DNA of 64,000 nucleotides from Candidatus Woesebacteria bacterium (GTDB lineage Bacteria; Patescibacteriota; Microgenomatia; UBA12405), in contig DAONDY010000001.1 of the NCBI GenBank assembly GCA_035402805.1, positions 13,697-77,696 of the forward strand, in the 5' to 3' direction. The translations under genes were made by a program, and so were the position numbers. The notes below the pieces were generated by a model. It saw only the letters and a program-made list of their open reading frames with translations. It was not told the DNA's origin and did no database searches. Shown here in pieces: positions 4,403 to 56,792 of this stretch (the first letter of the stretch is position 1; each line of letters begins with the position of its first letter).

Positions 4403-4472
4403 TATTTTATCTTATCTTTTACCTATTTACAACCATGTATAATCTGGTCGATAATCAGATATAATTCAAATC

Positions 4473-6086
4473 ATGACCTTAAAAGAAAGGATTCAGTTTA
4501 TAAGTCAAAAAAAACAAAATACCATTTTATCTGCCTCTCTGGTTTTAGGTGTCACTTTTGCCCTTTCTTCAATTCTAGGACTGCTTAGAAACCGTTTTCT
4601 TTATTCCAAATTTTTTTCCTGTTGCGTCGCCCAACTTGACGTTTATAATGCTGCTTTTCGTCTTCCAGATTTAATTTTTAAACTTTTGGTTACTGGTGTT
4701 TTATCAGCCTCTTTTATACCTGTTTTTTCCAGTTATTTACACAAAAATAAAAAAACTGCCGAGCAGGTTGCTTCAACGGTTATTAATCTTCTTTTAATTG
4801 CTTTTTCTGTTATTTCCATAATTGCCTTTATCTTTATTAAACCAATTTCTGCCTTAATTGCCGCCGGTTTTTCGCCAGATCAACTAGATTTGATGTCTAA
4901 TCTTAGTCGAATTTTACTTATCGCTCAAATATTTTTTCTTCTTAGTAATTTTGTTACTGCCATTCTTCAGGTCAATCAAATTTTTATCATTCCAGCACTC
5001 ACTCCCCTTGTCTACAATTTTTTCATCATTATCAGTATTTTTACCTTAGCTCCACTTTTTGGCATTTATGGTGTGGCCGTTGGTGCCGTTGTCGGTGCTT
5101 TTTTTCATCTAGCCATTCAAATTCCGGTTCTTCGTCGCCAAGGTTTTGTTTATTACCCCATAATTAAAACAAAGTTGAGTGGTGTTAAAGAGATTTTTCG
5201 CCTAATGATTCCTAGAATTTTATCCTTAGGTTTGGGTGAAATTGAAAATACAGTTACCTTATTTTTTGCCAGTACTCTAGCCTCCGGATCTATTTCTCTT
5301 CTAAATTTAGCTCTTCAATTTATGTATTTACCTAGTCGTATTTTTGGCACCACTGTTGGCCAGGCTTCACTACCAATTCTTTCCAAAAACATAGCCAAAA
5401 ATGAATTAGAAACATTTAGAAATACCGTTCACAAGATCATAACCCAAAGTTTATTTATAGCCGTACCAATCAGTGTTTTGATTTTGGTTGAAAGAGTCTC
5501 TATTATTAGACTTTTATATGGTTCTCGAGAATTTCCTTGGACGGCTACCATCCTGACTTCAAAAATCTTAGCTTTTTTGGTTCCCGGTATTATTTGCCAA
5601 GCCATAATTCAAATTTTAATCAGATCATTTTATGCCCTTCATAACACTAAAATTCCATTTTTTATCTCCATGACTTCCTTAGCCGCAAATATTATTACTA
5701 GTTATTGTTTTATTAACTTTACTAATCTTGGTGTTATTGGATTAGCAATTAGTGCTTCAATTGGTAATTTAATTCAACTTTTCGGTCTATTATTCACGTT
5801 TATTAAAGTTGTAGATGGATTTAATTGGCTAGTTATGTTTGTCAAATTTTATAAAATATCCATCTCTTCAATATTAATGGGTATTAGCAGTTGGTTGTCT
5901 ATTAAATTTTTAGATCTTTTTATTTTAGACACCACCCACGTTATCCCCGTTTTAACTTTAACTATTATTTCTTCATTTATAGGCTTAATTACCTATGTTT
6001 TTTCTGCTAACTTTTTGCATCTTGAAGAAATTAAAGACTACCGAAAATATTATTTAAGATTTAAGGATTTTATTTTCCATAAATAG
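4473..6086 (+). CDS. murJ: Lipid II flippase MurJ/MviN
   Basis: 537 aa polytopic membrane protein (~14 TM). MurJ-like N-terminus (LVLGVTFALSSILGLLRNRFL) and conserved R/D positions. Confidence 0.8.
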   Translation: MTLKERIQFISQKKQNTILSASLVLGVTFALSSILGLLRNRFLYSKFFSCCVAQLDVYNAAFRLPDLIFKLLVTGVLSASFIPVFSSYLHKNKKTAEQVASTVINLLLIAFSVISIIAFIFIKPISALIAAGFSPDQLDLMSNLSRILLIAQIFFLLSNFVTAILQVNQIFIIPALTPLVYNFFIIISIFTLAPLFGIYGVAVGAVVGAFFHLAIQIPVLRRQGFVYYPIIKTKLSGVKEIFRLMIPRILSLGLGEIENTVTLFFASTLASGSISLLNLALQFMYLPSRIFGTTVGQASLPILSKNIAKNELETFRNTVHKIITQSLFIAVPISVLILVERVSIIRLLYGSREFPWTATILTSKILAFLVPGIICQAIIQILIRSFYALHNTKIPFFISMTSLAANIITSYCFINFTNLGVIGLAISASIGNLIQLFGLLFTFIKVVDGFNWLVMFVKFYKISISSILMGISSWLSIKFLDLFILDTTHVIPVLTLTIISSFIGLITYVFSANFLHLEEIKDYRKYYLRFKDFIFHK

Positions 6087-6103: not shown

Positions 6104-6688
6104 ATGGCTGTAAAAAAAGAGATTTCTCTTTTACCTGAATCTGAAAATCCGAGATCTTTTGGAGCTCGCTTTTTTAAATGGATTACTACCACCGGCAGAG
6201 TTACCATAATTTTAACCGAACTAGTTGTCATTTCTGTTTTTATATCTCGATTTTGGTTGGATCGTAAAAATTCTGACCTTTCAGAAGTTGTTCGTCAAAA
6301 ACAAGCAATTTTAGAAAGTATCGTCCCCTTTGAAACTGAATTCGTCCAATTACAACAAAGATTAAATTATATTAAAGATTTCTATTCTAATCAGCCAGAA
6401 TACAGTAATCAAATTAATTCTCTAATAGTTAGTACTCCAGAAGACTTATTTTACGAGAGTCTCTCAGTTTCTAAAGATGAAAAGTTGAAGTCAACCGTTA
6501 TAAACACCTCTCTGGTTGCCTACAAAGAAGAAAGTATTGTTAATTTTATTACCAATTTAATGCTAAATTCGGATATTGATCAGGTTGATGTCAATAAAAT
6601 CGAGAAAAAAGAAAAGGAGAATAAATATTCTGTATCGTTAACTTTATTTTTTAAACCAACTAAGGCCAAAGTTGTTAGTAAAATATGA
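6104..6688 (+). CDS. PilN-like type IV pilus assembly protein (single-pass membrane protein)
   Basis: 194 aa. N-terminal ISLLPE resembles the INLLP motif of PilN, followed by one TM and a soluble domain. Overlaps the next gene by 4 nt. Confidence 0.3.
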   Translation: MAVKKEISLLPESENPRSFGARFFKWITTTGRVTIILTELVVISVFISRFWLDRKNSDLSEVVRQKQAILESIVPFETEFVQLQQRLNYIKDFYSNQPEYSNQINSLIVSTPEDLFYESLSVSKDEKLKSTVINTSLVAYKEESIVNFITNLMLNSDIDQVDVNKIEKKEKENKYSVSLTLFFKPTKAKVVSKI

Positions 6689-7311
6689 TCGACACTAAAA
6701 ATTGGTTTCAGCTTAGACCGATGTATAGCTATATTAGAAAACAAGCTGAAAATGAAAAATTTTTAAAATATTTGGAAATTGGAGGGACATTCACTTTAAT
6801 TACCATTTTCTTGTTCTTTACCATTATGCCTACTATGGTTGCTATCTCTTCATTAATTGGAGAAATTAAATCCAAAGAGGCTTTTATTAAAAAAGTTAAT
6901 TTAAAAATTTCTAATGTTATTAAAGCCCAAGAGTCTTATTCTCAAGTTCAGGAAAAATATTCTTTAATTGAAGATAGTTTTCCTACTCTTGGCCAGTATT
7001 ACAAAGGTACATCCAATTTGGCAACCATTTTTAAACAATCATCATTAGACATAAATCAAATTAGTTTAAATCTAGACAAAGACGATAAAGATAATAAAGA
7101 TCAATTTTTTGATTCTTACGAAGTTAATGTCAGTGGTGAAGGTCAATATTCTTCAATTTTAGAGATGGTTAAAAAAATATTTGATAACCGTCGATTAGTT
7201 GATACCATTAGTATTAAAATTAATCAGGTGCCAGATCAAAATAATTCAAGAAATATTAAGGTTAATTTATCTAGCGATTTATATTATTTACCAAATAATG
7301 AAAAAAAATAA
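6685..7311 (+). CDS. PilO-like type IV pilus assembly protein
   Basis: 208 aa: cytoplasmic N-terminus, one TM, a coiled-coil stretch, then C-terminal YEVNVSGEGQYSSILEMVKKIFDNRRLVDTISI...IKVNL, as in PilO. Confidence 0.4.
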   Translation: MIDTKNWFQLRPMYSYIRKQAENEKFLKYLEIGGTFTLITIFLFFTIMPTMVAISSLIGEIKSKEAFIKKVNLKISNVIKAQESYSQVQEKYSLIEDSFPTLGQYYKGTSNLATIFKQSSLDINQISLNLDKDDKDNKDQFFDSYEVNVSGEGQYSSILEMVKKIFDNRRLVDTISIKINQVPDQNNSRNIKVNLSSDLYYLPNNEKK

Positions 7312-7603
7312 AATTAGTTTATATTTTATATTTATATCTTTTCTTACTTTTGTAACAGTTTTTGTTTCTATTGTTCAAAAAAGTTATTTTAATTTTAAAA
7401 AACCGCAAGCATTAGTTGAAAATAATAGCTTATTAAAAGAAATAAACCCTAACTTAGATTTATCCGTTATCTCCACTATCGAATCTAAAAATAAAAACAT
7501 TGAAGAACCTTTTGATTTCTCTATTATTAAATCAAACAAAAAAGAAGATAATTCTAATCAAATAAGCACCTCTGCCGGTGCTTTAAATAAACCTACACCT
7601 TAA
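7298..7603 (+). CDS. Small single-TM protein (hypothetical; possible pilus assembly accessory or minor component)
   Basis: Track ORF 7199..7603 trimmed to the internal start MKKNKISLYFIFISF... N-terminal TM. Stop overlaps the start of the next gene (ATG at 7603). Confidence 0.3.
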   Translation: MKKNKISLYFIFISFLTFVTVFVSIVQKSYFNFKKPQALVENNSLLKEINPNLDLSVISTIESKNKNIEEPFDFSIIKSNKKEDNSNQISTSAGALNKPTP

Positions 7604-8904
7604 TGTTAAAAGAAAAAAAGATACCAACTATACTAGGACTTCTTATTTTGACTGGAGCTGTTTTTGCCGGCGCTGTTTTAACTAATAAAAGTACTGATTT
7701 TACATCTAGAGCCAGTGGCGATTGTAAACCCATAAATCCTCAAGTTACTAATATAACTAACAATTCTGCTTCAATCTCTTTTCTCACCGAATCATCATGC
7801 TTATCTTCGTTATCTATCAACAATCAAACCATTAATAACAACGCTGTTTTAAACAGTGATCAAAAAAGCAAAATACATTATTTTGATGTCGCCAATCTAG
7901 ATAGCTCAACTAAATATGAGTTTTCATTAATTAATGACGGCAAGACCTACAAAAATTCTTTATACAAATTTGAGACAGCTTTAGATCCAAACGGTTTAAT
8001 CCCTTCATCTAATTTAGCCTGGGGTCGTGTTTTTACACCAGAATTAAAAGCTGCTAGTAAAGTCATGGTTTTTATTAATATTCCTAATGCATCACCATTA
8101 TCTGCTTTAGTAACCACTTCTGGTAATTGGAATATTTCTTTAGCTAATAGTTTCAACGAGTCAAGAACCGACAGGTTTACTCCATCTGATAACATTTCAG
8201 AAGAAATTATTGTCATTGATCAAGAAAAACAAATTACTCAAATCAACGCCAACACCTCTCAAAATGATCCCACGCCAGATATAATTTTAGGTCAAAACCA
8301 ATTTTCTTCGTTACCAGTTACTTTCAACGCTGAAACCAATACCGGTTCATTATCCTCAATTACTCCTGTTCCAAATTCTAAAGAGTTAGATATTCTAAAT
8401 CCTCAAAATGACGAATCTATTTCAACCAAAAAGCCAGATTTTTTTGGTACTGGTCCAAGTAAATCCACCATTAAAATAGAAATTCATTCTTCAACTGTTT
8501 ATAGTGGAGAAGTTATTGTTAATGACGATGGTTCTTGGAATTGGTCTCCTCCTTCAGACTTAGCCCCAGGGGAACACACCATTACCGTTACCTTAAAAGA
8601 TAATGGTCTTGAAAAAATTATTTCCAAAAAATTTACAGTTTTAGCCACTGACAGTAATCTTTCTTATTCGGCTTCGCCCTCAGCCATAACTGTTACTCCT
8701 ACAATTTCTAGTGCTCCCACTCCAACTAGCACTCTTGCCCCCACCGTTACCCCTACCCCCACTTTAGTCCCAACAATTCGTACTAGTAAACCCAGCACCA
8801 GTTCTGGAGTTCCAGTTACCGGTAATTTAATTCCAACCGTTGGTTTGATTTTACTTTCGTCATCATTTATCGGCTTTTCTTTTCTCTCTTTTAAGAAAAA
8901 ATAA
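7603..8904 (+). CDS. Secreted Ser/Thr/Pro-rich surface protein with a C-terminal cell-wall-sorting-like signal (VPVTG + hydrophobic + KKK)
   Basis: 433 aa. N-terminal signal/TM, an FN3-like segment, a low-complexity T/P/S linker, and C-terminal VPVTGNLIPTVGLILLSSSFIGFSFLSFKKK. Confidence 0.5.
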   Translation: MLKEKKIPTILGLLILTGAVFAGAVLTNKSTDFTSRASGDCKPINPQVTNITNNSASISFLTESSCLSSLSINNQTINNNAVLNSDQKSKIHYFDVANLDSSTKYEFSLINDGKTYKNSLYKFETALDPNGLIPSSNLAWGRVFTPELKAASKVMVFINIPNASPLSALVTTSGNWNISLANSFNESRTDRFTPSDNISEEIIVIDQEKQITQINANTSQNDPTPDIILGQNQFSSLPVTFNAETNTGSLSSITPVPNSKELDILNPQNDESISTKKPDFFGTGPSKSTIKIEIHSSTVYSGEVIVNDDGSWNWSPPSDLAPGEHTITVTLKDNGLEKIISKKFTVLATDSNLSYSASPSAITVTPTISSAPTPTSTLAPTVTPTPTLVPTIRTSKPSTSSGVPVTGNLIPTVGLILLSSSFIGFSFLSFKKK

Positions 8905-8949: not shown

Positions 8950-9879
8950 ATGTTGAAAGTAGTCAAGATTAGTTCCATTTTAGAAGAATTTCGTCCTGTT
9001 CAATGGATAAAAAATTTAGCTATTTTTGCCGCCATTATTTTAAATGGTCAGCTATTTAATAAAGAATTATTTTTTAAAAGTTTTTTTGCTTTTATCTCCT
9101 TTTGTTTATTATCTTCTTCTTCTTATGTGATAAACGATCTTCTTGATATTAATAAAGATCGTCTTCATCCCACTAAAAAAAACAGACCCATTGCCAGGGG
9201 TGATATACCTGAATATTTAGCTGCTTTTCTAGCTATTGCGCTTCTTATTTTAGGTTTAGCTATTGCTCTTTTTACCAGTTATGGATTTTTTGTTATTTCT
9301 CTAGTTTTTATTTTACTCCAATATGCTTACTCCTTATTTCTTAAGAAAAAAGCCATTATTGACATCGTCGGTATTGCCTTATTCTTTATAATTCGTGCCT
9401 ACGCCGGGGAAATTGTTACCGGTTATCATTTATCAATTTGGATTATGTTAGCCGTTATCTTTTTATCTTTATTTGTTGCTAGTGGTAAACGTCGTAGTGA
9501 ACTTGTTAACAGCGGAATAAAAACTCGCTCAGCTTTAGCTGGTTATGGTAAAAGTTTATTGAATTTTTATACCACCATGTTTGCTGTCTGTACTTTGATC
9601 ACCTACGCCATGTTTACTTTTTTTGAAGAATCAGTTACTTTCACTGGATCGGGATTTTTACATGGCTTTCTTTTAGAAAATTTTCCCAATGCCTTAAATA
9701 GAAAATGGTATATGATTACTCTTCTACCGGTGATATTTGGCATGATGCGATATGGTCAAATAATTTTTGAAATGCAGGAAGGTGAGAGACCAGAAAGAAT
9801 AATTGCTACCGATATACCTCTTTTACTTTCAGTCCTAACTTGGGGATTGATGATAATTGGTATCATTTATGCAATCTAA
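8950..9879 (+). CDS. UbiA-family polyprenyl-phosphate prenyl/phosphoribosyltransferase (decaprenyl-phosphate phosphoribosyltransferase-like)
   Basis: 309 aa, ~8 TM. NDLLDINKD matches the NDxxDxxxD Asp-rich motif of UbiA enzymes. Overall resembles the DPPR-synthase subfamily. Confidence 0.7.
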   Translation: MLKVVKISSILEEFRPVQWIKNLAIFAAIILNGQLFNKELFFKSFFAFISFCLLSSSSYVINDLLDINKDRLHPTKKNRPIARGDIPEYLAAFLAIALLILGLAIALFTSYGFFVISLVFILLQYAYSLFLKKKAIIDIVGIALFFIIRAYAGEIVTGYHLSIWIMLAVIFLSLFVASGKRRSELVNSGIKTRSALAGYGKSLLNFYTTMFAVCTLITYAMFTFFEESVTFTGSGFLHGFLLENFPNALNRKWYMITLLPVIFGMMRYGQIIFEMQEGERPERIIATDIPLLLSVLTWGLMIIGIIYAI

Positions 9880-11449
9880 TCGACTTCCAAAAGTAATTCT
9901 TTTATTGTTTTTTTTAATCATCACTGTTTTAACTCGCTTTTGTTTTTTAGATTGGGGAAATGGTTATTTTTTTAATCCAGATGAAAATAATATGGCCACA
10001 TCAGTGGCCCAAATGAATTATAAAAATTTTAATCCAAACTTTTTTGCCTATGGTCAATTTCCTCTTTTTTTGACTTTTTTTACTACACCATTACATAATT
10101 TTTCATCTATTGTTTTAACCCTTCGTTTTTGGTCAGCCGTTTTTTCTTGTCTTTCGATCTACTTTTTTTATTTGATTTCTAAAATTATTTTTAAATCAAA
10201 AAAAATTAGTTATATTTTTATTTTACTTTTAATTTTTACTCCAGGACTTATTCAATCTGCCCATTTTGGCACCACTGAGTCACTTCTTCTTTTTGTTTTT
10301 TCGGCTAACATTTTTTTATCTTTAAAATATTTTGAAAATCCTAAAAAGATATATTTTTTATTTTCTATTTTAGTCAGTGCTATTGGAATTGCTTCAAAAA
10401 TTACATCAGTTTTTTTTATTATGCCTTTTTACACCACTCTTTTTTTGACTTTTTTGAAAAACAAAAAAATTTTTAATTTTATTTCTATTACTTTTATATT
10501 TACTTTTTTGACGCTACTTTTATCTCTTCTTTTTTCTCCATTTAATATTATTAAATTTTCTGATTTTAAATCATCCATGGTTTACGAAACATCAGTTGCC
10601 GCTGGATCTATTAGGGTTTTTTACACCAGACAATTTGAAGGTTCATTGCCATACATTTTTCAATTTCAAAAGGTTTTTCCTTATGCTAATGGTATTTTTA
10701 TTTTTACTTTTTCATTTATTGGTTTTTTACTTTTTTTATTAGGTTTTAAGCGTTTAACTCCTGATACTAAAAAGAAATTATCAATTTTATTAATTCCTTC
10801 AATAATTTATTTTATTTATACTGGCCAACTTTTTGTTAAATGGACCAGATTTATGTCTCCACTTTTTTTTATTGGTCCGTTTTTTTGTTTATTTATTTTT
10901 CAAAAATTAAAGAAAAAATTATTAATTTTTATTTTATTAATACTAATGATTAGTCCTGGTTTATATTTCTTCCAGAAATATTTTTCAAAAGATATTAGAA
11001 TTTATGCTTCAGATTTCATTAAATCAAACATCCCAGCAGATTCTTTCGTCCTGTCTGAATCCGGTAACGTTGTTAATTTTCCTGTCAATTATCCCGATCT
11101 TCAGGTAAATAATTTTAATTTTTACGAGTTAGATTCAAATGAAAACAATCTAATCAAATTAACTGATGCTTTAACTTCATCTGATTATGTTTTTATCCCT
11201 TCCCGTCGAGTTTTCAAAAATCAAAATAACAAAAATTATCCGCTATCTCAAAAATATTATCAAAATTTATTTTCTGGAAATATTGGTTTTGTTGAAATAA
11301 AAAAAATCAGTCGTCAAAAAGATCTCTTTTTGAATTCTGAAAATGCCGAAGAAACCTGGTCTGTTTTTGATCAACCAACAATCAGAATTTATAAAAAAAA
11401 TATTAATTTAAGTCCAGATGATTATCAAGAATTACTCTCATCTAATTAA
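9857..11449 (+). CDS. GT-C fold membrane glycosyltransferase (PMT_2 / ArnT-like, GT39/GT83 family)
   Basis: 530 aa polytopic. N-terminal loop with NPDENN (the DE motif of ArnT/PMT_2). Large C-terminal soluble domain. Confidence 0.65.
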   Translation: MVSFMQSNRLPKVILLLFFLIITVLTRFCFLDWGNGYFFNPDENNMATSVAQMNYKNFNPNFFAYGQFPLFLTFFTTPLHNFSSIVLTLRFWSAVFSCLSIYFFYLISKIIFKSKKISYIFILLLIFTPGLIQSAHFGTTESLLLFVFSANIFLSLKYFENPKKIYFLFSILVSAIGIASKITSVFFIMPFYTTLFLTFLKNKKIFNFISITFIFTFLTLLLSLLFSPFNIIKFSDFKSSMVYETSVAAGSIRVFYTRQFEGSLPYIFQFQKVFPYANGIFIFTFSFIGFLLFLLGFKRLTPDTKKKLSILLIPSIIYFIYTGQLFVKWTRFMSPLFFIGPFFCLFIFQKLKKKLLIFILLILMISPGLYFFQKYFSKDIRIYASDFIKSNIPADSFVLSESGNVVNFPVNYPDLQVNNFNFYELDSNENNLIKLTDALTSSDYVFIPSRRVFKNQNNKNYPLSQKYYQNLFSGNIGFVEIKKISRQKDLFLNSENAEETWSVFDQPTIRIYKKNINLSPDDYQELLSSN

Positions 11450-13091
11450 TTCGCATAAAAAATCTTTTTTATTATTATCAATAATATTGATAGCTATTTT
11501 TTTTAGGACTATCGGTTTTAATTGGGATCAAGGTCAACATCTTCATCCAGACGAAAGGTTTTTAACTATGGTTTTAACCAAAGTTAAAATTCCTTTATCT
11601 TTAAAAGATTATTTAAACCCTCAAACCTCAACCTTAAATCCATATAATAATAATTTTAATTTTTTTGTCTATGGTTCTTTTCCTCTAAACTTAGTTAAGT
11701 TGGCAGGTGAGCTTTTAAACAAAACAAATTACCAACAAATTCATTTTATTGGTCGGGGATTAACTATCTTGGCTGACGTTTTAATCGTTCTATTAATTTA
11801 TTTAATCTCCAAAAAAATTTTTAATCAAAAAATCGCTCTTTTATCTTCTTTTTTTTATTCTATCTGTGTATTTCCAATTCAGCTTTCTCATTTTTATACG
11901 GTTGATCCTTTTTTAAATTTTTTTATAGTTTTAAGTTTTTACTTTTTAATTCTTTTAAAAGATAAAAACAAAGTTCTGTTTAAATTGTTTTTATTATCAG
12001 TTTCTTTCGGAATTGCCGTTGCTTGTAAAATTTCTGCAGTTTACTTTTTACCGGTTATAATAATATTTTTATTTTTTTATTTCATTAAAAAACCACTAAG
12101 GTTTATTTTTTATAGTCTATTTTTAGCCATTTTATCGTTGATTATTTTTAGAATTAATCAACCACAAGTTTTCTCCACCGGTAATTTTTTAAATTGGAAA
12201 CCTAATCCCCAATTTATTTCTAACTTAAAGGAACTTCAAAGTTATAACAAAATGCCTTTCTATCCGCCAGGAATTCAATGGTTAAAATCTCTTCCTCTAA
12301 TTTTTCCTCTCAAAAATATTGTCTTTTGGGGAACTGGGTTACCTCTTGGAATTATTTTCATTTTTTCTTGTTTTTATTCAATTTTTTTTATCTTTAAAAA
12401 AGGCATTCTAAAAAATTTTTATTTTTTTAGTATTGTTTTTTGGATATTAATTTTATTTTTTTACCAAGGAAGTCAGCATGTCACTACTATGCGTTATTTT
12501 TTACCAGTTTATCCATTTTTATGTATTACTTCTGCTTTTTTTATTTATCAAACAAAATTTTTAAGTTCAAAATTAGTAAAAGTCTTATTTTTTATAATTT
12601 TATTATTCTATCCAATCTGTTTTATTTCCATTTATTTTAAAGATCATACTAGAATTGCCGCTTCTAAATGGATTTATCAGAACATTCCATCAGGTAGTGT
12701 TTTAGCTACCGAATATTGGGATGACAGTTTGCCATTATCAGTTGGTAAAAACTCACTTTATAGTTATCAATATCAAAACTTAGATATTGCTAGTCAAGAT
12801 TCACCCCAAAAAATAAACAAACTTAAACAGCAATTAGAAAAAACAGATTTTGTTATTCTTTCTTCAGGGCGTTTTTACTTAACTATTCCTAAAAATTCGG
12901 ACATTTATCCATTAACTACTAAATATTATCAATCGCTTTTTGATGGTTCTCTTGGTTTTATAAAAGTCGCTGAATTTAATTCATACCCTGTTTTTAATGA
13001 TACTTCAGCCGAGGAAGCTTTCACTGTTTACGATCATCCCAAAGTGATTATTTTTCAAAAGACTTCAAATTTTGATTTAAATTCTTTCTGA
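11418..13091 (+). CDS. GT-C fold membrane glycosyltransferase (PMT_2 / ArnT-like), paralog of the previous gene
   Basis: 557 aa. HLHPDERF motif in the first loop. Same architecture as 9857..11449. Confidence 0.65.
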   Translation: MIIKNYSHLINSHKKSFLLLSIILIAIFFRTIGFNWDQGQHLHPDERFLTMVLTKVKIPLSLKDYLNPQTSTLNPYNNNFNFFVYGSFPLNLVKLAGELLNKTNYQQIHFIGRGLTILADVLIVLLIYLISKKIFNQKIALLSSFFYSICVFPIQLSHFYTVDPFLNFFIVLSFYFLILLKDKNKVLFKLFLLSVSFGIAVACKISAVYFLPVIIIFLFFYFIKKPLRFIFYSLFLAILSLIIFRINQPQVFSTGNFLNWKPNPQFISNLKELQSYNKMPFYPPGIQWLKSLPLIFPLKNIVFWGTGLPLGIIFIFSCFYSIFFIFKKGILKNFYFFSIVFWILILFFYQGSQHVTTMRYFLPVYPFLCITSAFFIYQTKFLSSKLVKVLFFIILLFYPICFISIYFKDHTRIAASKWIYQNIPSGSVLATEYWDDSLPLSVGKNSLYSYQYQNLDIASQDSPQKINKLKQQLEKTDFVILSSGRFYLTIPKNSDIYPLTTKYYQSLFDGSLGFIKVAEFNSYPVFNDTSAEEAFTVYDHPKVIIFQKTSNFDLNSF

Positions 13092-14225
13092 AAATAATCT
13101 TTCATAATTATTTATAGTTTTTTTATAATCAAAAATTTTAATATTTTTATTAAATTTATCTTTATAGTATTTTTTTTGTTTTTTTAAAACTAATTCCAAT
13201 TTATTAGCCAAATCAATTTCATTTTTATTCTCAAATAATTCTCCTAAGCCAGTTTTAAGGACAGGAACTCTCATCCCTGGTAAGTTGGTTGCCACACATG
13301 GTGTTCCGCACTTCATCGCTTCTATCTGAACCCAACCAAATGATTCTAAAGTGTCATCACTTGGTAGAACTAAAACATCAATTTTTTTATAAAAATTAGA
13401 TAAAAATTTTCTTTCAATGTTTTCCAAAAAGAAAAATTTATTTTTTAAAATTTTTTTATATTTTCTTTTTAAAAAATCATAATAATTTTCGCCAATGACT
13501 TTAGTCGGTCCTGCCATTAATATTACATAATTTTCTTTACCTAGTTTTTCATCAAGTAAAACTGTAGATTTTATTAATAATTCAATTCCTTTTTGTTTAG
13601 CGATTCTTCCGCAAAAACCAATTACATATTTTTTATTTTTGATTATGTTTTTAATCTTTTTTTCCAGTTTAATATTTCTTTTTTTTTCAAATTTAATCGG
13701 TGGATAAATGGCTACTGTTTTGTTTAAAAATCTTTTTAAAAAATATGAATTTTTAGCATAATCACTAGTATAAGAAATTATTTTATTTGACAATAAAGCG
13801 GCTAAATATTGACAAATAAAAACACCGCCATCTATTAATTTATTTTTAAAACCTTTCCAGAAACTTAAATCAGTGTGATGAGTTAAAAAAACTTTTTTAT
13901 TTAAAATTTTACCGACAATTGCTACCCAGAATGATTCTGGTTGAGGTAGGTGGCAATTGACCACATCATGTTTTTTTATTTCTTTTATTGATTCAGCTAA
14001 AAAAGATGGAATAATCGGACCTTTACCTATTTTAAAAGCAATTTTTAGTCGTTTTATTTTAACTCCATTAGTAACCTCTTCTTTATTTGTTTTTAAATCA
14101 TGCCAACTTGTCAAAATCGTAACCTCATGTCCTTTTTTTACTAGTTCCTCTGCTAATATTTTGATATATATTGTAATTCCCGAAACATTAGGCAAATAGT
14201 ATGGTGTTGAAATCAATATTTTCAC
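13077..14225 (-). CDS. Glycosyltransferase family 4 (GT-B fold)
   Basis: 382 aa. N-terminal MKILISTPYYLPNVSGI and C-terminal ESFGWVQIEAMKCGTPCV (EX7E motif). Confidence 0.8.
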   Translation of the reverse strand: MKILISTPYYLPNVSGITIYIKILAEELVKKGHEVTILTSWHDLKTNKEEVTNGVKIKRLKIAFKIGKGPIIPSFLAESIKEIKKHDVVNCHLPQPESFWVAIVGKILNKKVFLTHHTDLSFWKGFKNKLIDGGVFICQYLAALLSNKIISYTSDYAKNSYFLKRFLNKTVAIYPPIKFEKKRNIKLEKKIKNIIKNKKYVIGFCGRIAKQKGIELLIKSTVLLDEKLGKENYVILMAGPTKVIGENYYDFLKRKYKKILKNKFFFLENIERKFLSNFYKKIDVLVLPSDDTLESFGWVQIEAMKCGTPCVATNLPGMRVPVLKTGLGELFENKNEIDLANKLELVLKKQKKYYKDKFNKNIKIFDYKKTINNYERLFSERI

Positions 14226-14268
14226 AACTGAATTATAACAATATTCAAAAAGGATTTATAATAAATGA

Positions 14269-14841
14269 ATGATTTTTTTAAAATCACTTTTATTTTGGCA
14301 ACCGAAAAAAGATTGGCTTGTCTGGTTTGAACAGAATTTATTAAGAAAAAAAATTCTTATCGTCTTGAATTATATAATTTGGCTTTTCTTTTTCTTTATT
14401 TCATATCTTCTGATTAAAAAAGACGCTAATGTTTTTTGGCAGATTCTTATCGCCACCATCGTTGCAGAACTCCTTGAGCGTTTCCTAAAAAATAAAATTT
14501 ATTGGCGCCGCCCACTTTTTAAGAAAAATGATGACGTTCCTCCTGGATTAGTTAAAAAATGGTATAAAACCGGTTCCTTTCCCTCGGGTCATACTATTAA
14601 GGCTTTTTATTTTCTTTTTTTTATTATTCAGTATCAGGTTTTTTCAGTTCCCTTATTTTTATCAATAGTCTCACCGCTTTTATTTTTTCGCATTTTTATT
14701 GGTTTTCATTACCCCATAGACATGTTTGGTGGAGCAGTTACCGGTATTCTAGTTTGGTTGTTATCAAAATGGATTATTTTCCCAATTTTTCTTACCAATA
14801 TATTTAAAACTATTTTTAATTTTATTTTTTTTATAAAATAA
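14269..14841 (+). CDS. PAP2-family lipid phosphatase (membrane)
   Basis: 190 aa. KxxxxxxRP (KNKIYWRRP), PSGH (SFPSGHT) and H...D (GFHYPID) motifs. Confidence 0.75.
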   Translation: MIFLKSLLFWQPKKDWLVWFEQNLLRKKILIVLNYIIWLFFFFISYLLIKKDANVFWQILIATIVAELLERFLKNKIYWRRPLFKKNDDVPPGLVKKWYKTGSFPSGHTIKAFYFLFFIIQYQVFSVPLFLSIVSPLLFFRIFIGFHYPIDMFGGAVTGILVWLLSKWIIFPIFLTNIFKTIFNFIFFIK

Positions 14842-14862
14842 TATTTTTATGACTAATATGTA

Positions 14863-14911
14863 TTTCTCCCTTTTATCAAGGGGAGATGTCCGAAGGACAG
14901 AGGGGTTTTGA
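14863..14911 (+). repeat. Copy A of a ~49-nt two-hairpin repeated element (UCUCCC-loop-GGGAGA; UGUCC-GAA-GGACA; GAGGGGUUUUG)
   Basis: Near-identical copies at 22217-22267, 47404-47452 and 52283-52330 (- strand). Hairpin 2 shows compensatory substitutions between copies. Confidence 0.7.
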
Positions 14912-14915
14912 CTTT

Positions 14916-17003
14916 ATGTTGTCAGATTTAACCTCTATTTTTTCTTGGTGGTTTTTGATTTTTTCTTTAGGTCTTTTAACTTTACCGGTAACATTTTTTT
15001 TATTTCAAAAATTTTGGGATAAAGGCTATATTTTTTCTAAAATTATTTGCATTATTATTGCTACTTATCTAATTTTTATTGGTGGAGTTTCTAAAATTTT
15101 GACTTTCACTAATTTAAATTTATTTATAGTTCTAGGCATAATCATTATATTGAATCTTTTATTCCTTAAACAAGGCAAAAATTTATCTTTATTTTTAAAA
15201 ACAATTAAAGAAAATTACCGGGTTTTTATTTTCCAAGAACTACTCTTTCTTTTAATTTTAATTAGTTGGTCTTTTGTTCGTGGTTTCGCTCCAGACATCG
15301 AGGGTTTGGAAAAATATATGGATTGGGGTTTTATAAATTCGGCCTTAAGATCAAAATTTTTACCACCACAAGATATGTGGTTTTCCGGTGAAGTAATAAA
15401 TTATTATTATTTTGGTCATTTAATTTTTGCCGTTTTAACTAAATTAAGTAATATTAGTTCAGCTATTACTTATAATTTATCCATCGCCACTGTTTGTGCT
15501 CTAACTTTTGCTTCCTCTTTTTCCCTTGCTTCTAATTTGGTTTACCTTTCTTTAAAAAAAATCAATTTTAAAAAAGTCGTCACTGCTGGTTTAATTTCCG
15601 CTCTTTTATTGACTTTTGGAGGCAATCTTCATTCGGTTTACAAGATTGCTAAAATAAATATCCAAGATAACGGCAAATTAGTTTTATCAAAGCAAGCTCT
15701 CAAAGAATCAGTTGGCAAATATTGGTACCCAGACGCCACTCGTTTTATTGGTCATGATCCCGATATTAAAGATAAAACCATTCATGAATTTCCAGTTTAT
15801 AGTTTTGTGGTTGCCGACCTTCATGGTCATATGAATGACATTCCTGTTGTTTTATTTTTTATGGCCTTTTTATTCGCTACCAGCTTCTCTTTATCAGGAT
15901 TAATAAATTATCTTGTCATTATTGTTTCCGGATTTATTTTATCAATTACCTATATGACCAATGCTTGGGATTTTGCCATTTATGGTCTTCTTTTTGCCAT
16001 CTTCACTTTCTTTATAAATCTTAAAAATGATAAAAAATCAGCTGTTAAAAAAACTTTAATTAACGGAATTTTAACAATTGCTGTTTGGTTTATTTTTAGT
16101 ATTCCTTTTTCTATGAATTTTGTTCCCATGACTAATGGAATAAAAATTTCTGATAGCCATAGCCCCTTTTATCAATTATTTATTTTATACGGTGGTTTTT
16201 GGCTGATCTGTTTACCATTTATTGTTTTGATATTTAAAAAATTTATTGTAAATTGTAAATTGAAAATTGAGAATTCAGATCTATTTGTTCTGGCCGTTAT
16301 TGTTACTGCCACTCTTTTGATAATTATTCCAGAATTAATTTATTTAAAAGATATTTATATTTATGAACATCGTCGGGCTAATACTATGTTTAAGTTGGTC
16401 TATCAATCATTTATTATGTATTCTTTAATTTCTGGTTATGTCTTTTATAAAACCAGATCTTTGTTAAAATCTAAAATTTTAAATAATTTATTTGGGTTTT
16501 TATTTACTGTAATTTTCTCAATTCATTTGATCTATCCCTATTTTGCCATTAAGTCTTTTTATGGTCTTAAAAATTATCAAGGGCTTTGGGGTTTGAATTA
16601 TTTAAAAGATTCCTATCCTGACAATTTAAAAGCTATTGATTGGATTAACAAAAATATTTCTGGTCAACCAATAATGCTGGAAGCAGTCGGTGATAGTTAT
16701 ACTACTTTTAATCAAATTTCTGTTGCCACCGGCCTCCCCACAGTCGAAGGGTGGATAGTCCACGAATGGCTTTGGCGCGGTGGCTATGACAAACCAAAAC
16801 AACGCCAAGATGATGTTCGTTCCATTTATGAAGATAAGGATATTAATAGATTGAAAGTTCTAATTAAAAAATATGATATTAAATATATCTTTATTGGCTC
16901 CAAAGAATACGAAAAATATCCCAACTTAAACGAAGATAATTTTATAAAAATTGGTGGAAAAATAATTTATCAGTCTGGTAAAACTAAGATTTACCAACTA
17001 TAG
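14916..17003 (+). CDS. DUF2298-like polytopic membrane protein (putative GT-C-type glycosyltransferase)
   Basis: The track ORF starts at 14886 inside the repeat element; ATG at 14916 is more plausible. >12 TM, conserved YYYFGHL segment typical of DUF2298. Confidence 0.5.
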   Translation: MLSDLTSIFSWWFLIFSLGLLTLPVTFFLFQKFWDKGYIFSKIICIIIATYLIFIGGVSKILTFTNLNLFIVLGIIIILNLLFLKQGKNLSLFLKTIKENYRVFIFQELLFLLILISWSFVRGFAPDIEGLEKYMDWGFINSALRSKFLPPQDMWFSGEVINYYYFGHLIFAVLTKLSNISSAITYNLSIATVCALTFASSFSLASNLVYLSLKKINFKKVVTAGLISALLLTFGGNLHSVYKIAKINIQDNGKLVLSKQALKESVGKYWYPDATRFIGHDPDIKDKTIHEFPVYSFVVADLHGHMNDIPVVLFFMAFLFATSFSLSGLINYLVIIVSGFILSITYMTNAWDFAIYGLLFAIFTFFINLKNDKKSAVKKTLINGILTIAVWFIFSIPFSMNFVPMTNGIKISDSHSPFYQLFILYGGFWLICLPFIVLIFKKFIVNCKLKIENSDLFVLAVIVTATLLIIIPELIYLKDIYIYEHRRANTMFKLVYQSFIMYSLISGYVFYKTRSLLKSKILNNLFGFLFTVIFSIHLIYPYFAIKSFYGLKNYQGLWGLNYLKDSYPDNLKAIDWINKNISGQPIMLEAVGDSYTTFNQISVATGLPTVEGWIVHEWLWRGGYDKPKQRQDDVRSIYEDKDINRLKVLIKKYDIKYIFIGSKEYEKYPNLNEDNFIKIGGKIIYQSGKTKIYQL

Positions 17004-49358: not shown

Positions 49359-51566
49359 ATGGGTATTAATAGTTTTTGGCTGTTTTATATTGAAGCCGAC
49401 AGTATTTTAGTTTCTCTCATTAGTTGGGGAAATGGCCGCTATTATGTTGCTTCAATCGGTCCTAGAGTTGAATGTGACATCAATAATAAAGAATCACTTT
49501 TAAAAGCGGCTGATGAGTCCCTTTCCAGTGCTGCCGCCAGCGCCGATATTCCAGAAGATCAAGAACCGATGTTTGCTGGGCTAGTTATCCCTTCGTCTTG
49601 GGTGGGTCCAGATGGCAAAATTACTAAAGAAAAATCAGATATTATTTTGCCTCTTCTTAAAGAGCTTGACCTTAAACCATCAGGTTTTATGTCCAACGAT
49701 GAAGCCATTATTGAAGAATCAAACAAACCCGATGATTTTCCCGCTAGTTTCATTAATCTCTATTTAGAATCTAATGCCTTTGAATTATCTTTAATTTATC
49801 TTGGCAAAGTAAAAAAAAGAATCAGAAAAGTTTTTGACACCGAATTTAATGCCCAACTAGTCGAAGATTCTCTATTAGAATTAAATTCCGATTCAACCTT
49901 ACCTCCTCAAATTTATGTTTATGGTAAAGCTGATGATTTAGTTATCGAAAATCTTAAAAATTTTCCCTGGGTTGGTAAAAAAAATGTTGAAACTTTTCTC
50001 CATTTTCCCGAAATTAAACTCTATCAAGACCATGATTTAATAAATATTTTTTTTAAGGCCATCACTTCTCAAATGATTGGTGGGGGAAATCCTAATCATC
50101 AACCTCTTCCTCAGGCTGAAGATCAAGAACCAGAAGAGTCATTAGATTCAGAAGAATCACCAGAGCCAGAAGAGGTAAAAACAGTTGAAAATTTGGAAGA
50201 AGTTGAAGAGATTGAAGAAACGCCAGAAGTGTCAGAACCTTCAGAAGAAAATTTAGAAGAAGTTTCTTTTAGCGATTTAGGTTTTGCCAAAGAAGAAGCT
50301 GTTGTTGTTCCTCCTCGAGAGATTTTCAATATTGAACCTATCAATACTGAGCCTGTCGAAGCACCTAAACCAGAGAAAAAACCAATTTCTTTTAATTTTC
50401 CTAAAATAAAATTTAAGCTTCCCAAATTTAAAAATAATTTTTTGCTTTTTATTTTTCCCATCGCTTTAGTCATTCTTTTTCTACCCATTCTATTTTCCAA
50501 AGCCAATATCGTTCTTTTTGTTACTCCATACGAATTTAATAAAACAGTTAACGTTACTCTTGATTCTAATGCCACCAGTCTCACTTCCTCAGTCATTCCC
50601 GTCGACAAAAAAACAGTTACTATAAATTCTTCTGTTACTATCAAAACCACTGGCCAAAAAGTTATCGGTAATAAAGCCACTGGTGAAATTACTATTTTTA
50701 ATAAAGTTGAAAAAGTTCAAAGTATCCCTAAAGGTTCAATTTTAATTGATTCTAAAAATCAAAAATTTGAATTGATGAGTGCTGTCCAGGTCGCTTCTAG
50801 CAGCTCTAATTTTAATGCTAATCCGCCAACCATGGTTCTCGGTCAATTGAAAACTGTAATTTCCGCCAGTGATATTGGGCCTGAATACAATATTCCCAAA
50901 GAGACCACTTTACATTTTAAAGATTTTCCCGAAACTTCAATTATTGTTAAAAGCAATACTGATTTTACTGGGGGAACTAAAGAACAAATTGGTGCCGTCA
51001 GCCAACAGGATAAAGTTGCCGCTGAGGCTCAGTTAGCTTTGAAATTAAAAGAAGAAGCCGATCAAAAAATAAGCCAGGAATTTAATACTTCAAATAATGC
51101 CATTAAAGAGACTATTCAAACCAAAAAAGGTAAAACTGAACTCAATCGTGAAGTAGGGGAGGAAACTGATGAACTAACTGCCAGTGCCGATTCGACTGTC
51201 AGTGTTTTTGTTTTTAAACCCGAGTTAAAAAATCAAATACTAGCTCAATTATTATCATCAGAAACTGGTTATTCTGATTCTGATATAAATCCCGACTCTT
51301 TCGTTTTCACCTTAAAAATCGATAAATTAGATTCCAACAAGGCCACTGGTAGTTTAAATATTAAAGGTTCTTCTCTGCCAAAAATTAACGTTGAATTGCT
51401 TAAGAAAAATATTTCCGCTAAAACTACCAAAAAAGCTCAAGAAATTATTAAAAAAACTATCAGCCGTGTCTATGATTATAATTTAAAAATTACTTTTAAA
51501 ATTTTTAATATTTTACCTTTAAACACAAAGAATATTTTTATTGATGTTAAAAACGAATCACCGTGA
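49359..51566 (+). CDS. Membrane protein with an N-terminal FtsA/PilM-like actin-fold segment, acidic linker, one TM and a large extracytoplasmic domain
   Basis: 735 aa. N-terminal FWLFYIEADSILVSLISWGNGRYYVASIG resembles the FtsA/PilM first beta-hairpin (hLDIGssKIavlV), with a degenerate phosphate loop. Glu-rich linker, TM ~residues 352-372. Stop overlaps the sortase start (ATGA). Confidence 0.45.
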   Translation: MGINSFWLFYIEADSILVSLISWGNGRYYVASIGPRVECDINNKESLLKAADESLSSAAASADIPEDQEPMFAGLVIPSSWVGPDGKITKEKSDIILPLLKELDLKPSGFMSNDEAIIEESNKPDDFPASFINLYLESNAFELSLIYLGKVKKRIRKVFDTEFNAQLVEDSLLELNSDSTLPPQIYVYGKADDLVIENLKNFPWVGKKNVETFLHFPEIKLYQDHDLINIFFKAITSQMIGGGNPNHQPLPQAEDQEPEESLDSEESPEPEEVKTVENLEEVEEIEETPEVSEPSEENLEEVSFSDLGFAKEEAVVVPPREIFNIEPINTEPVEAPKPEKKPISFNFPKIKFKLPKFKNNFLLFIFPIALVILFLPILFSKANIVLFVTPYEFNKTVNVTLDSNATSLTSSVIPVDKKTVTINSSVTIKTTGQKVIGNKATGEITIFNKVEKVQSIPKGSILIDSKNQKFELMSAVQVASSSSNFNANPPTMVLGQLKTVISASDIGPEYNIPKETTLHFKDFPETSIIVKSNTDFTGGTKEQIGAVSQQDKVAAEAQLALKLKEEADQKISQEFNTSNNAIKETIQTKKGKTELNREVGEETDELTASADSTVSVFVFKPELKNQILAQLLSSETGYSDSDINPDSFVFTLKIDKLDSNKATGSLNIKGSSLPKINVELLKKNISAKTTKKAQEIIKKTISRVYDYNLKITFKIFNILPLNTKNIFIDVKNESP

Positions 51567-52282
51567 GCTATCTTTATCTTAAAAAAAATACCCCCTCCCC
51601 AAAAAATAAATCGACCGCCAAAAAGAAAAAAATGGCTACTATCTTTCTGGTCATTGGTTTAGTCTTTTTCTTTTCAGCTCTTTTCCCCATTCTTAAGTTT
51701 CAACTCCAGTCTTCGCTTAATTTCAGTCAAATGATTAACCCTCTTTCTTTAAAATCTTACAGCGGTTCTCAAAATATTTTAGGCACAGTTACTACCGATT
51801 ACACTCAAATGGCTAATTGGTTTGTTGCCGATTCTAGCGAAAATAATCAGCTTTTTTCCAATAACAATAACTTAACTTATAAAATTTCTATTCCTAAATT
51901 AAAAATTAAAGATGCCGTTGTGACTATTGGTAGTATGGATTTAAAAAAAAGTTTAATTCAATATCCCCAAACGGCTCTTCCTGGTCAACTTGGAAATACT
52001 GTCGTTTTCGGACACTCAGTTTTGCCTCAATTTTTTAATCCAAACAATTATCTAACCATTTTTTCTACCCTCTATAAGTTAAAACAGGGAGATGAAATAT
52101 TTATTGAATACGATAGCGTCCAATATAAATATATTATTAATGAAATGTTCGAAGTTAAACCCACCGACCTTTCGGTTCTTGAACAACGTTTTGATCAAAA
52201 AAATTTGACTCTTATAACTTGCAGTCCCCCAGGCACTTATCTTCGCCGTCTTATCATTAAAGCCAGTTTGAGCATTAATTAA
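51563..52282 (+). CDS. Sortase-family transpeptidase
   Basis: 239 aa. N-terminal TM. Catalytic His region (VVFGHS) and the TLITC active-site Cys motif (NLTLITCSPPG), followed by a conserved Arg (YLRR). Confidence 0.7.
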   Translation: MSYLYLKKNTPSPKNKSTAKKKKMATIFLVIGLVFFFSALFPILKFQLQSSLNFSQMINPLSLKSYSGSQNILGTVTTDYTQMANWFVADSSENNQLFSNNNNLTYKISIPKLKIKDAVVTIGSMDLKKSLIQYPQTALPGQLGNTVVFGHSVLPQFFNPNNYLTIFSTLYKLKQGDEIFIEYDSVQYKYIINEMFEVKPTDLSVLEQRFDQKNLTLITCSPPGTYLRRLIIKASLSIN

Positions 52283-55607: not shown

Positions 55608-56792
55608 ATGCTTGATGATTTAAATAGAGACAATTACCAAAGTGATTTACCGACAGGGAAAGCTAAAATACCCAAATTTTTGTACATCACTGTTATTTTT
55701 CTATTAATTTTAATTTTATTTATCTTCGGATTTAATCTGTATTTAAAAAAAACAAAAGAGATAAAAAACAGCCAGACAACAAACCAGACCGATTCAACAT
55801 TAATTTCCAGTCAAGAAGCAGTTAATATAACTAAAAAAACACAAAGCTGGATCAGTTCTCAAAAAAACGAAGAAGGTATTTATCGTTTTGGATGTGAGTG
55901 TTTAGATGAGTTTTGCCAGCAATGCAAACAAAGTGTGTATTCTCCAAGAGTTATTCCTTTTGTATTGTGGAGTAAATTTAAATATGCCGAAAGTAGCAGT
56001 AATTTTAATGATTTTGTCAAGGAAGTAGAATTATCTCAAAATAGTGTCAAAGAACATTCGTTACAATATTCAGGATGGAACTGTAAATTGCTTTATGAAA
56101 CATGGAAAAGTGATAGTTTATCCCAGACAACCAAAGACCAGATTAAAAATATTTGTATCAAGAGTGAATACGAATTTGAAGATGGATTAAAACTTCCATC
56201 AAACTTAGATCAAACCCTATTAACTAACATAAAAAATATAAAAACCAATAAACCCTTGTCAGAAGTTAGTAATCAAGATCAGTTAAAGAATTTTTTTTAT
56301 AATAATTCTTTTCTTGTTTCGGAAATGGTAACCAGACATTTATGGAGTGAAATAACACACTATGTTTATTTAGAAAGTAATTTATCTGAAACTGATTTGG
56401 CAAAAATATATTTTGATAAAGCATTAAAAGGTTATTTTCTAAAAGAAAAATTAGGAGTTAAAGAAAATGCGGTTTTAGGAATAGCCGCCATTGATATGTA
56501 CAAACTGACTAAAGATGAAACTTATTTAGATTTTTCTAAATATCTTTTAAATTTAAAACCAGAAATAGGCAATAATTCATCTTATAACTTGATTTATCAA
56601 GCTTTGTTAGCTCGTGAATTAGCTATAGTTAGCCAGGATAAATCATATGAATCAATCTTTAAAACAACTGTTTCCAATATTGTTAAATATAATAAATCAA
56701 ATAGCTACCAAGAAGGTGCTTTCAAAGCGCCAAGTGAGGCTTTTTATTTAACGGAAAATAGTTTAATTTCTGGTTTAATTTCAATGTTATGA
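55608..56792 (+). CDS. Membrane-anchored hypothetical protein, possibly an alpha/alpha-toroid-like fold
   Basis: 394 aa. N-terminal TM. CxC...CxxC cluster (GCECLDEFCQQC). SWISSQKNEEGIY resembles QxxxGxW repeats. Stop overlaps the next start (ATGA). Confidence 0.35.
   Translation: MLDDLNRDNYQSDLPTGKAKIPKFLYITVIFLLILILFIFGFNLYLKKTKEIKNSQTTNQTDSTLISSQEAVNITKKTQSWISSQKNEEGIYRFGCECLDEFCQQCKQSVYSPRVIPFVLWSKFKYAESSSNFNDFVKEVELSQNSVKEHSLQYSGWNCKLLYETWKSDSLSQTTKDQIKNICIKSEYEFEDGLKLPSNLDQTLLTNIKNIKTNKPLSEVSNQDQLKNFFYNNSFLVSEMVTRHLWSEITHYVYLESNLSETDLAKIYFDKALKGYFLKEKLGVKENAVLGIAAIDMYKLTKDETYLDFSKYLLNLKPEIGNNSSYNLIYQALLARELAIVSQDKSYESIFKTTVSNIVKYNKSNSYQEGAFKAPSEAFYLTENSLISGLISML

Follow-up and report, generated by a model that had tools for sequence, protein, structure and literature searches.

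The protein encoded at positions 7603-8904 of a 64,000-nucleotide stretch of a Candidatus Woesebacteria genome (contig DAONDY010000001.1, positions 13,697 to 77,696; this whole stretch is called the window below) is probably a true substrate of a sortase; its sorting signal would be a variant of LPXTG specific to the lineage, and the protein would be covalently attached to peptidoglycan. The tripartite signal and its conservation pattern, the occurrence of such tails on other families in related genomes, the intact sortase and the gene context were observed directly, and from them we infer the cleavage, the acceptor and the pairing with the particular sortase encoded at 51563-52282. An earlier reading of the window, made from the sequence only, had put forward this protein, hereafter the target, as a candidate substrate of that enzyme. 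The computational checks proposed there were all favourable, and the candidacy is strengthened by the LPXTG-like conservation of the signal, by the appearance of the tail on unrelated protein families, by contigs on which both genes occur, and by an intact catalytic triad in the sortase.

A conserved LPXTG-like signal at the C-terminus of the target

The gene and the elements of its 3' part that are relevant to sorting are as follows.

7603-8904, forward strand: target gene, 433 residues, ATG start; secreted protein with three beta-sandwich domains and a putative C-terminal sorting signal
8650-8808, forward strand: Pro/Thr/Ser-rich linker, residues 350-402; disordered, with predicted local distance difference test (pLDDT) scores below 50 over residues 350-406
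8809-8823, forward strand: pentapeptide VPVTG, residues 403-407; LPXTG-like motif
8824-8901, forward strand: hydrophobic span NLIPTVGLILLSSSFIGFSFLSF (residues 408-430), which includes the conserved P411-T412, followed by KKK (residues 431-433)

The C-terminus of the target reads ...KPSTSSGVPVTGNLIPTVGLILLSSSFIGFSFLSFKKK*, with the pentapeptide preceded by ...KPSTSSG. The tripartite organization of pentapeptide, hydrophobic span and KKK described in the sequence-only reading was borne out by these residue assignments and by an AlphaFold model built from a 50-sequence alignment (mean pLDDT 78.8), in which residues 409-432 are helical and are preceded by a disordered region (residues 350-406) that holds the pentapeptide. 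VPVTG sits 26 residues before the C-terminal end of the target and, compared with the LPXTG-type criterion applied here (L-P-x-T-G about 30-35 residues from the C-terminus), keeps P, T and G with V in place of L, fitting the relaxed [LVIMY]PxTG pilin definition and not the strict one. The signal had been labelled non-canonical; the label is overstated, since V, I or Y at position 1 is known for class C pilins (PMC5640630), and for the same reason the pentapeptide alone is not novel.

Conservation was assessed in the 120 best target homologues (46-100% identity), 116 of which had the motif at the same place. Among these 116, position 1 was occupied by V (58), I (38), M (14) or L (4), and position 4 by T (97), S (13) or A (4), while P at position 2 and G at position 5 were present in all of them (116/116 each) and position 3 was free, with K, T, V, R, A and Q all seen. 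The residues on both sides of the pentapeptide were conserved as well: a near-invariant P-S-T-S-S-G stands directly ahead of it, after three intervening residues P (108/116) and T (114/116) follow, and at least two K/R residues lie within the last 7 residues in 97 of the 116 homologues. Beyond residue 361, the near-invariant columns of the 50-sequence alignment were only S398, T399, S401, P404, G407, P411 and T412, together with T377, P380 and T381 of the linker. Metagenome orthologues down to 34% identity retained xPxxG (e.g. VPSSG, PPVTG, MPVSG and LPKSG), as did representatives of clusters formed at 50% identity in a library of 1.8 billion proteins. With 116 of 120 homologues, down to 46% identity, retaining the motif behind a linker that varies in length and sequence, its occurrence is far beyond chance and the tag is under selection.

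The remaining parts of the target are as follows.

7624-7680, forward strand: N-terminal hydrophobic helix, residues 8-26 (AlphaFold); Sec signal or signal-anchor
7732-8640, forward strand: three beta-sandwich domains, namely an FN3-like domain (residues 44-124), a second domain (138-230) and a Big_13 Ig-like domain (263-346)

The N-terminus combines a basic N-region with an 18-residue hydrophobic helix, and SKA/SRA-SG follows about 11 residues further on. In the alignment of 50 homologues, K36, A37, S38 and C41 were invariant or nearly invariant, and the conserved S-K/R-A-S-G-D-C stretch after the helix is a possible signal-peptidase site. The FN3-like domain is accompanied by invariant C41 and C66. 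The fold matches of the target were generic FN3/Ig, and a comparison of its profile with PDB sequences returned Tie2 FN3 domains as the sole match, which at an E of about 1e-3 is uninformative. The linker region of the alignment is gapped and poorly conserved, differing in length and sequence between orthologues, and is presumed to be the wall-spanning segment. An NCBI protein 100% identical to the target, present on contigs of up to 579 kb, carries the name 'Ig-like domain-containing protein [Candidatus Woesebacteria bacterium]'. The window derives from an ultra-small bacterium of the Microgenomates, within the candidate phyla radiation (CPR), and the nearest relatives are Candidatus Shapirobacteria.

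The same tail architecture on unrelated proteins

The sequence-only reading had also called for a scan for further tagged proteins and had stated that a lack of other proteins with this signal would speak against it. The scan gave none in the window, whereas two unrelated families in related genomes, families 2 and 3 below, have the same kind of tail, so that the signal is shared with other proteins. Related loci amounting to 2.1 Mb were collected for this purpose, 80 of them around the sortase (GTDB genomes) and 80 around the target (metagenomes). Contigs L011, L012, L014, L017 and others, titled 'uncultured Gammaproteobacteria bacterium', are Shapirobacteria-like by sortase synteny and identity and are likely mislabelled.

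Both families bear LPxxG-xxx-P[T/S]-helix tails. Family 2 proteins are 160-190 residues long, with a signal peptide and a single Big_13 domain, and end in LP[T/A][V/A]G-xxx-PT-helix-KK. In 31 of the 51 loci with sufficient flanking DNA, their gene was found on the strand opposite to the sortase gene, 2.5-4.8 kb downstream of it. Examples are L007 13999-14484 and L008 13457-13942 (both on the reverse strand), with members in 36 further sortase loci, and the gene adjoins a radical-SAM (MiaB-like) gene. Family 3 proteins are secreted and Cys-rich and have about 90 residues of Pro/Thr linker and the tail GPSPTRI[I/V]-LPx[S/A]G-xEFPxQ-helix; absent from the window, the family is encoded directly after the target orthologue, between this and ubiA, in 15 of 45 loci (L006 11317-12480, L004 11400-12638 and 13 further metagenome loci, e.g. 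L122 11316-12422). The grammar common to the three unrelated ectodomains is a hydrophobic-P-x-x-G motif, three residues, P-[T/S] and a helix.

Relative to the literature found, the conserved signal with its downstream Pro-Thr and the candidate substrates for the Microgenomates sortase are new. A signal of the form [V/I/M/L]-P-x-[T/S/A]-G-xxx-P-T, followed by a helix and a basic tail, would permit prediction of CPR surface proteomes from metagenomes, and the conserved candidate substrate supplies a concrete peptide for in vitro enzyme tests.

The sortase of the window

51563-52282, forward strand: sortase, 239 residues, GTG start, N-terminal membrane anchor; candidate processing enzyme

In a profile search, the protein encoded here was the only sortase in the window, with scores of 88.8 bits for PF04203 (cutoff 26.6) and 56.5 bits for TIGR01076 (cutoff 39.35), in agreement with the earlier identification of this open reading frame as the sole sortase, 43 kb away from the target. 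H151, C220 (in TLITC) and R228 were invariant in 15 sortase homologues at 62-85% identity, and the catalytic residues align with those of the closest solved structure, sortase 4d70 (54 bits). Homologues of the target and the sortase share contigs of 735491, 281378, 290809, 72243, 108934 and 89534 bp, and the gene of the sortase's partner protein (described below) shares a further contig of 84285 bp with the target, giving at least seven contigs in all. A sortase family is reported from more than half of CPR genomes and as near-ubiquitous in Microgenomates, with no substrates described (Méheust et al., PMC6744442), and other CPR genome papers mention merely the presence of a sortase. Neither substrates nor a recognition motif for the Microgenomates sortase were described in the literature searched.

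When compared with the NCBIfam class models (NF0337xx, classes A-F), the sortase remained below every class cutoff, scoring 61.4 for class C (cutoff 160), 60.4 for SrtD (140), 53.5 for class D (165), 50.7 for class E (160) and 24.3 for class F (166). The best of these matches, although weak at 61 bits, is to class C, [V/I]PxTG is typical of pilin subunits, and the candidate substrates are Ig-like domain proteins, all of which would suit a sortase that links subunits, for example family 2 and the target, into a covalent pilus or fibre of the Gram-positive type. We regard such polymerization as quite improbable, since the class-specific scores are far under their cutoffs (61 against 160 for class C), no pilin-motif lysine or isopeptide domain was identified in proteins whose fold matches are generic FN3/Ig, and the window contains one sortase, no pilin-sortase operon and no member of family 2. 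The recently described Pam pilus of CPR bacteria (bioRxiv 10.64898/2026.03.03.709456), whose Ig-like pilins assemble by donor-strand exchange, was considered separately and rejected as a counterpart: its operon context differs (ATP synthase, corB), and LPXTG, PilN and PilO go unmentioned in the text of the paper.

Observations against a sortase substrate, and alternative readings of the tail

Several observations weigh against the view that the target is processed by this sortase. With regard to the signal, position 4 in the 50%-identity representatives is S about as often as T and sometimes A or P; in one sub-clade of the target family the pentapeptide reads L[Y/L]x[S/T]G (e.g. LYKSG, LLKTG), with Pro2 replaced; the near-invariant Pro-Thr four residues past the Gly has no counterpart in known sortase signals and could instead stem from packing at the helix boundary or from a different recognition partner; and TIGR01167 (LPXTG_anchor), at E values of up to 1, matched neither the whole protein nor the 41-residue tail by itself. 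With regard to other substrates, a six-frame scan of the 64-kb window for a second open reading frame with xPx[TSA]G, a hydrophobic segment and a basic tail found none; family 2 has Val or Ala instead of Thr at position 4, which is unusual at a sortase scissile site, and a copy sought beside the radical-SAM gene (after 60868) was absent in the window and in its closest relatives; and the family 3 tail ends in GFLILL, without basic residues. As for the enzyme, it is encoded about 43 kb from the target and outside the target operon, it fits no curated class, so that its specificity cannot be predicted from class, and its co-occurrence with the target says little, since almost every member of the clade has both genes. 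No CPR sortase is known to have been characterized biochemically.

The sub-clade with L[Y/L]x[S/T]G (loci L142, L145-L148, L152-L155, L158, L159 and L110) keeps G-xxx-PT, and going by these sequences the motif Pro is replaceable and the downstream Pro-Thr is not. Such a pattern bears on a different reading, in which the tail is a permanent, uncleaved C-terminal anchor and xPxTG-xxx-PT is a juxtamembrane docking or helix-capping motif that contacts, for example, the PilN/PilO-like or small proteins of the target operon. The most invariant elements indeed include G407 and P411-T412 at the start of the helix, Pro2 and Thr4 are replaceable in some clades, the gene is strictly coupled to those of bitopic membrane proteins, and TIGR01167 gave no match. 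We consider a permanent anchor fairly unlikely nonetheless, as the same architecture is present on unrelated proteins outside the operon, one of them encoded near the sortase, and as a free X position, a Pro/Thr-rich linker and a basic tail form the classic grammar of a sorting signal, none of which a simple anchor needs.

The tag could also be read by a system other than a sortase, such as an exosortase, an archaeosortase, a rhombosortase-like or another enzyme, in view of its likeness to PEP-CTERM and VPDSG-CTERM: all such systems combine a motif, a helix and a basic tail, and VPDSG or VPESG is found in distant relatives of the target. This explanation appears very improbable, given that an NCBIfam scan of the whole target and of its isolated tail matched no LPXTG, PEP-CTERM or other tag model, those of exosortase type included, that the window proteins scanned contained no such enzyme, and that a sortase is the characteristic enzyme of the clade (PMC6744442).

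Proposed attachment and the operon of the target

If the target is a sortase substrate, as we favour, it would be exported by Sec and fold outside the membrane as a string of three FN3/Ig domains, with the C-terminal helix and the KKK stop-transfer tail holding it in the membrane transiently. The membrane-anchored sortase (51563-52282) would recognize [V/I/M]-P-x-T-G, cut after the Thr and transfer the target to the lipid II cross-bridge, and the target would end covalently on peptidoglycan with its Pro/Thr-rich linker of about 50 residues across the wall. The translational coupling of the target gene to PilN-like, PilO-like and small membrane-protein genes in orthologous loci further suggests that it is likely the wall-attached outer partner of a PilN/PilO-like membrane platform, and not a free-standing adhesin. 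The genes upstream of the target are the following.

4473-6086, forward strand: murJ, lipid II flippase, first gene of the cluster; PF03023 244.5 bits
6104-6688, forward strand: PilN-like bitopic membrane protein; PF05137 20.1 bits, below the cutoff of 22.8
6685-7311, forward strand: PilO-like bitopic membrane protein; PF04350 20.1 bits, below the cutoff of 22; 4-nucleotide overlap with the stop of the pilN-like gene
7298-7603, forward strand: small, N-terminally anchored membrane protein of 101 residues; its stop overlaps the ATG of the target (TAATG)

The target is the last gene of this tightly packed string, and its position after PilN/PilO-like genes downstream of murJ, as noted in the earlier reading, is confirmed, with a PF03023 match of MurJ (244 bits), and the PilN-like and PilO-like assignments are suggested by matches of orthologues: PF05137 matched 24 of 25 PilN-like orthologues (best E 1.8e-6) and PF04350 matched 21 of 27 PilO-like orthologues (best E 2.1e-7). 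Genes for the PilN-like and PilO-like proteins were found upstream of the target in all 50 loci with sufficient upstream DNA, and murJ and the small gene each in 46 of the 50 target loci. Both the PilN-like and the PilO-like protein have N-terminal transmembrane segments; the PilO-like profile matched Myxococcus PilO (3jc8, E 8.7e-5), and the PilN-like profile had no match among PDB sequences. The small 101-residue protein had no Pfam match and belongs to no known family, and no pilM, pilB, pilC or pilT was found in the operon or elsewhere in the 64-kb window. A near-invariant cytoplasmic N-terminus, KKE[I/L]SLLP, is present in 25 PilN-like orthologues (window 6104-6130); KKE-ISLLP resembles what we take to be the PilM-binding INLLP motif of canonical PilN, a motif for which a literature search found nothing. 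The canonical trans-envelope network has PilM bound to a highly conserved motif at the N-terminus of PilN, and PilP as the bridge from PilNO to PilQ (PMC5805733).

The best promoter-like site lies at 4426-4455, ahead of murJ, and is a weak hint only, the promoter and terminator scan of the window having given such sites in numbers not above chance. The envelope genes in the window encode MurJ, FemAB, MltG and an M14 carboxypeptidase, and in a neighbourhood given over in this way to building the envelope, the cross-bridge chemistry on lipid II needed by a sortase is plausible. Immediately after the target, a conserved envelope-glycosylation block at 8950-17003 (forward strand) encodes a UbiA-type prenyltransferase, two PMT/PMT_2 glycosyltransferases, a divergently oriented GT4, a PAP2 and a DUF2298 protein; synteny of the block extends to orthologous loci at 46-51% identity, and its enzymes may glycosylate the Pro/Thr-rich linkers.

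The obligatory place of the main candidate substrate in a pilN/pilO operon, at the pilP/pilQ position, is likewise new relative to the literature found. Its linkage to PilN/PilO-like genes and murJ hints at how wall-bearing episymbionts that have no outer membrane may join membrane machines to the wall.

The partner protein encoded upstream of the sortase

49359-51566, forward strand: 735-residue partner protein; the stop side of its gene overlaps the sortase start by 4 nucleotides

In each of 67 related loci (67/67), the gene immediately upstream of the sortase encodes a homologue of this partner. Its AlphaFold model (pLDDT 77) has four regions. Residues 1-240 are predicted to form a cytoplasmic, two-lobed beta-beta-beta-alpha-beta-alpha-beta-alpha domain of the actin-like (ASKHA) fold, which is followed by an acidic disordered linker, a transmembrane helix (residues 362-379) and a large extracellular baseplate-J-like domain. 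Foldseek matched the N-terminal domain to PPX/GppA, P. aeruginosa PilM, ParM, MreB and FtsA, with the PilM:PilN(1-12) structure 5eou among the matches (TM-score normalized to target length, 0.45-0.47), and the C-terminal domain to phage baseplate proteins; these structural matches of a predicted model establish the fold and not a specific relationship to PilM. The partner itself had no Pfam match and no PDB sequence match in sequence and profile searches, and 4 of 20 partner homologues gave a weak match to Pfam Baseplate_J. Besides DnaK, it is the sole actin-fold protein in the window. DxG phosphate-binding motifs, typical of the actin-like fold, are not obvious in its sequence.

The obligatory coupling of a sortase to an actin-fold/baseplate-J-like membrane protein is also new relative to the literature found, and this association may hint at the same connection of machine to wall. 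A more far-reaching proposal, which we consider unlikely, is that the sortase substrate of Microgenomates is no ordinary adhesin and instead a structural part of a PilN/PilO-based envelope-spanning machine, encoded at the PilP/PilQ positions of the operon and tying the platform covalently to the wall, with the sortase recruited through binding of KKE-ISLLP by the PilM-like domain of the partner. If true, a type-IV-pilus-type apparatus would for the first time be seen anchored to the wall by a sortase, and the arrangement would provide a tie between platform and wall in a bacterium without an outer membrane or secretin.

Two further loci downstream of the sortase were recorded. At 55608-59718 (forward strand), three consecutive genes without Pfam families encode a 394-residue membrane protein, a Cys-rich, secreted protein of 724 residues bearing a signal peptide, and a 257-residue protein whose N-terminus, NKGQIAIIVLLASAVLLTLGLSS, resembles a PilX/pseudopilin-type hydrophobic segment; the trio may be a pilus-associated set. 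At 60872-61480 (forward strand), a 202-residue membrane protein combines an acidic N-terminal region rich in Pro, Thr and Glu with a Cys-rich domain at the C-terminal side that matched Pacifastin_I/VWC (E 1e-6), a eukaryote-type domain that is unusual in a bacterium, and its gene is conserved beside the radical-SAM gene in related loci.

Comparison with known systems

The Gram-positive LPXTG/sortase A pathway shares with the present system the tripartite C-terminus, an N-terminal export signal (putative in the target) and a Pro/Thr-rich, presumably wall-spanning linker, as well as the His/Cys/Arg triad of the sortase and genes for lipid II and FemAB. The differences are that position 1 here is V, I or M, with L in only 4 of 116 homologues, that position 4 relaxes to S or A in relatives, that an additional conserved Pro-Thr stands four residues past the Gly, that TIGR01167 gave no match to the tail, and that the host is a CPR bacterium whose sortase lies outside the curated classes.

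The substrates of class C sortases include RrgC (VPDTG), RrgB (IPQTG) and RrgA (YPRTG) (PMC5640630). Like these pilins, the target has a hydrophobic residue other than Leu at position 1, retains P, T and G and is Ig-like, and class C is the best, weak, class of its candidate sortase; unlike them, it is accompanied by no pilus islet, multiple sortases or recognizable pilin motif, and its gene lies in a pilN/pilO operon and not beside the sortase.

The PEP-CTERM and VPDSG-CTERM (exosortase) and PGF-CTERM (archaeosortase) systems have the same design of motif, helix and basic cluster, and some relatives of the target have VPDSG or VPESG. Here, in contrast, no tag model matched, no exosortase-type enzyme was seen in the window, and a spacer separates the Gly from the helix, as in LPXTG signals.

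With the type IVa PilM-N-O-P-Q system (PMC5805733), the shared features are the gene order, in which a PilN-like, a PilO-like, a small membrane-tethered and a large secreted beta-rich protein follow one another, the small gene sitting at the position of PilP, a conserved cytoplasmic N-terminal motif on the PilN-like protein, and an actin-fold (PilM-like) protein, encoded elsewhere in the window. The present operon differs in having no pilM, with no pilB, pilC or pilT nearby, and no secretin, which is not expected, as CPR bacteria are without PilQ (PMC6744442). The last gene of the operon encodes a string of FN3/Ig domains with a sortase-type anchor. The actin-fold domain, for its part, belongs to a fusion protein with a transmembrane helix and a baseplate-J-like ectodomain, whose gene is coupled to that of the sortase.

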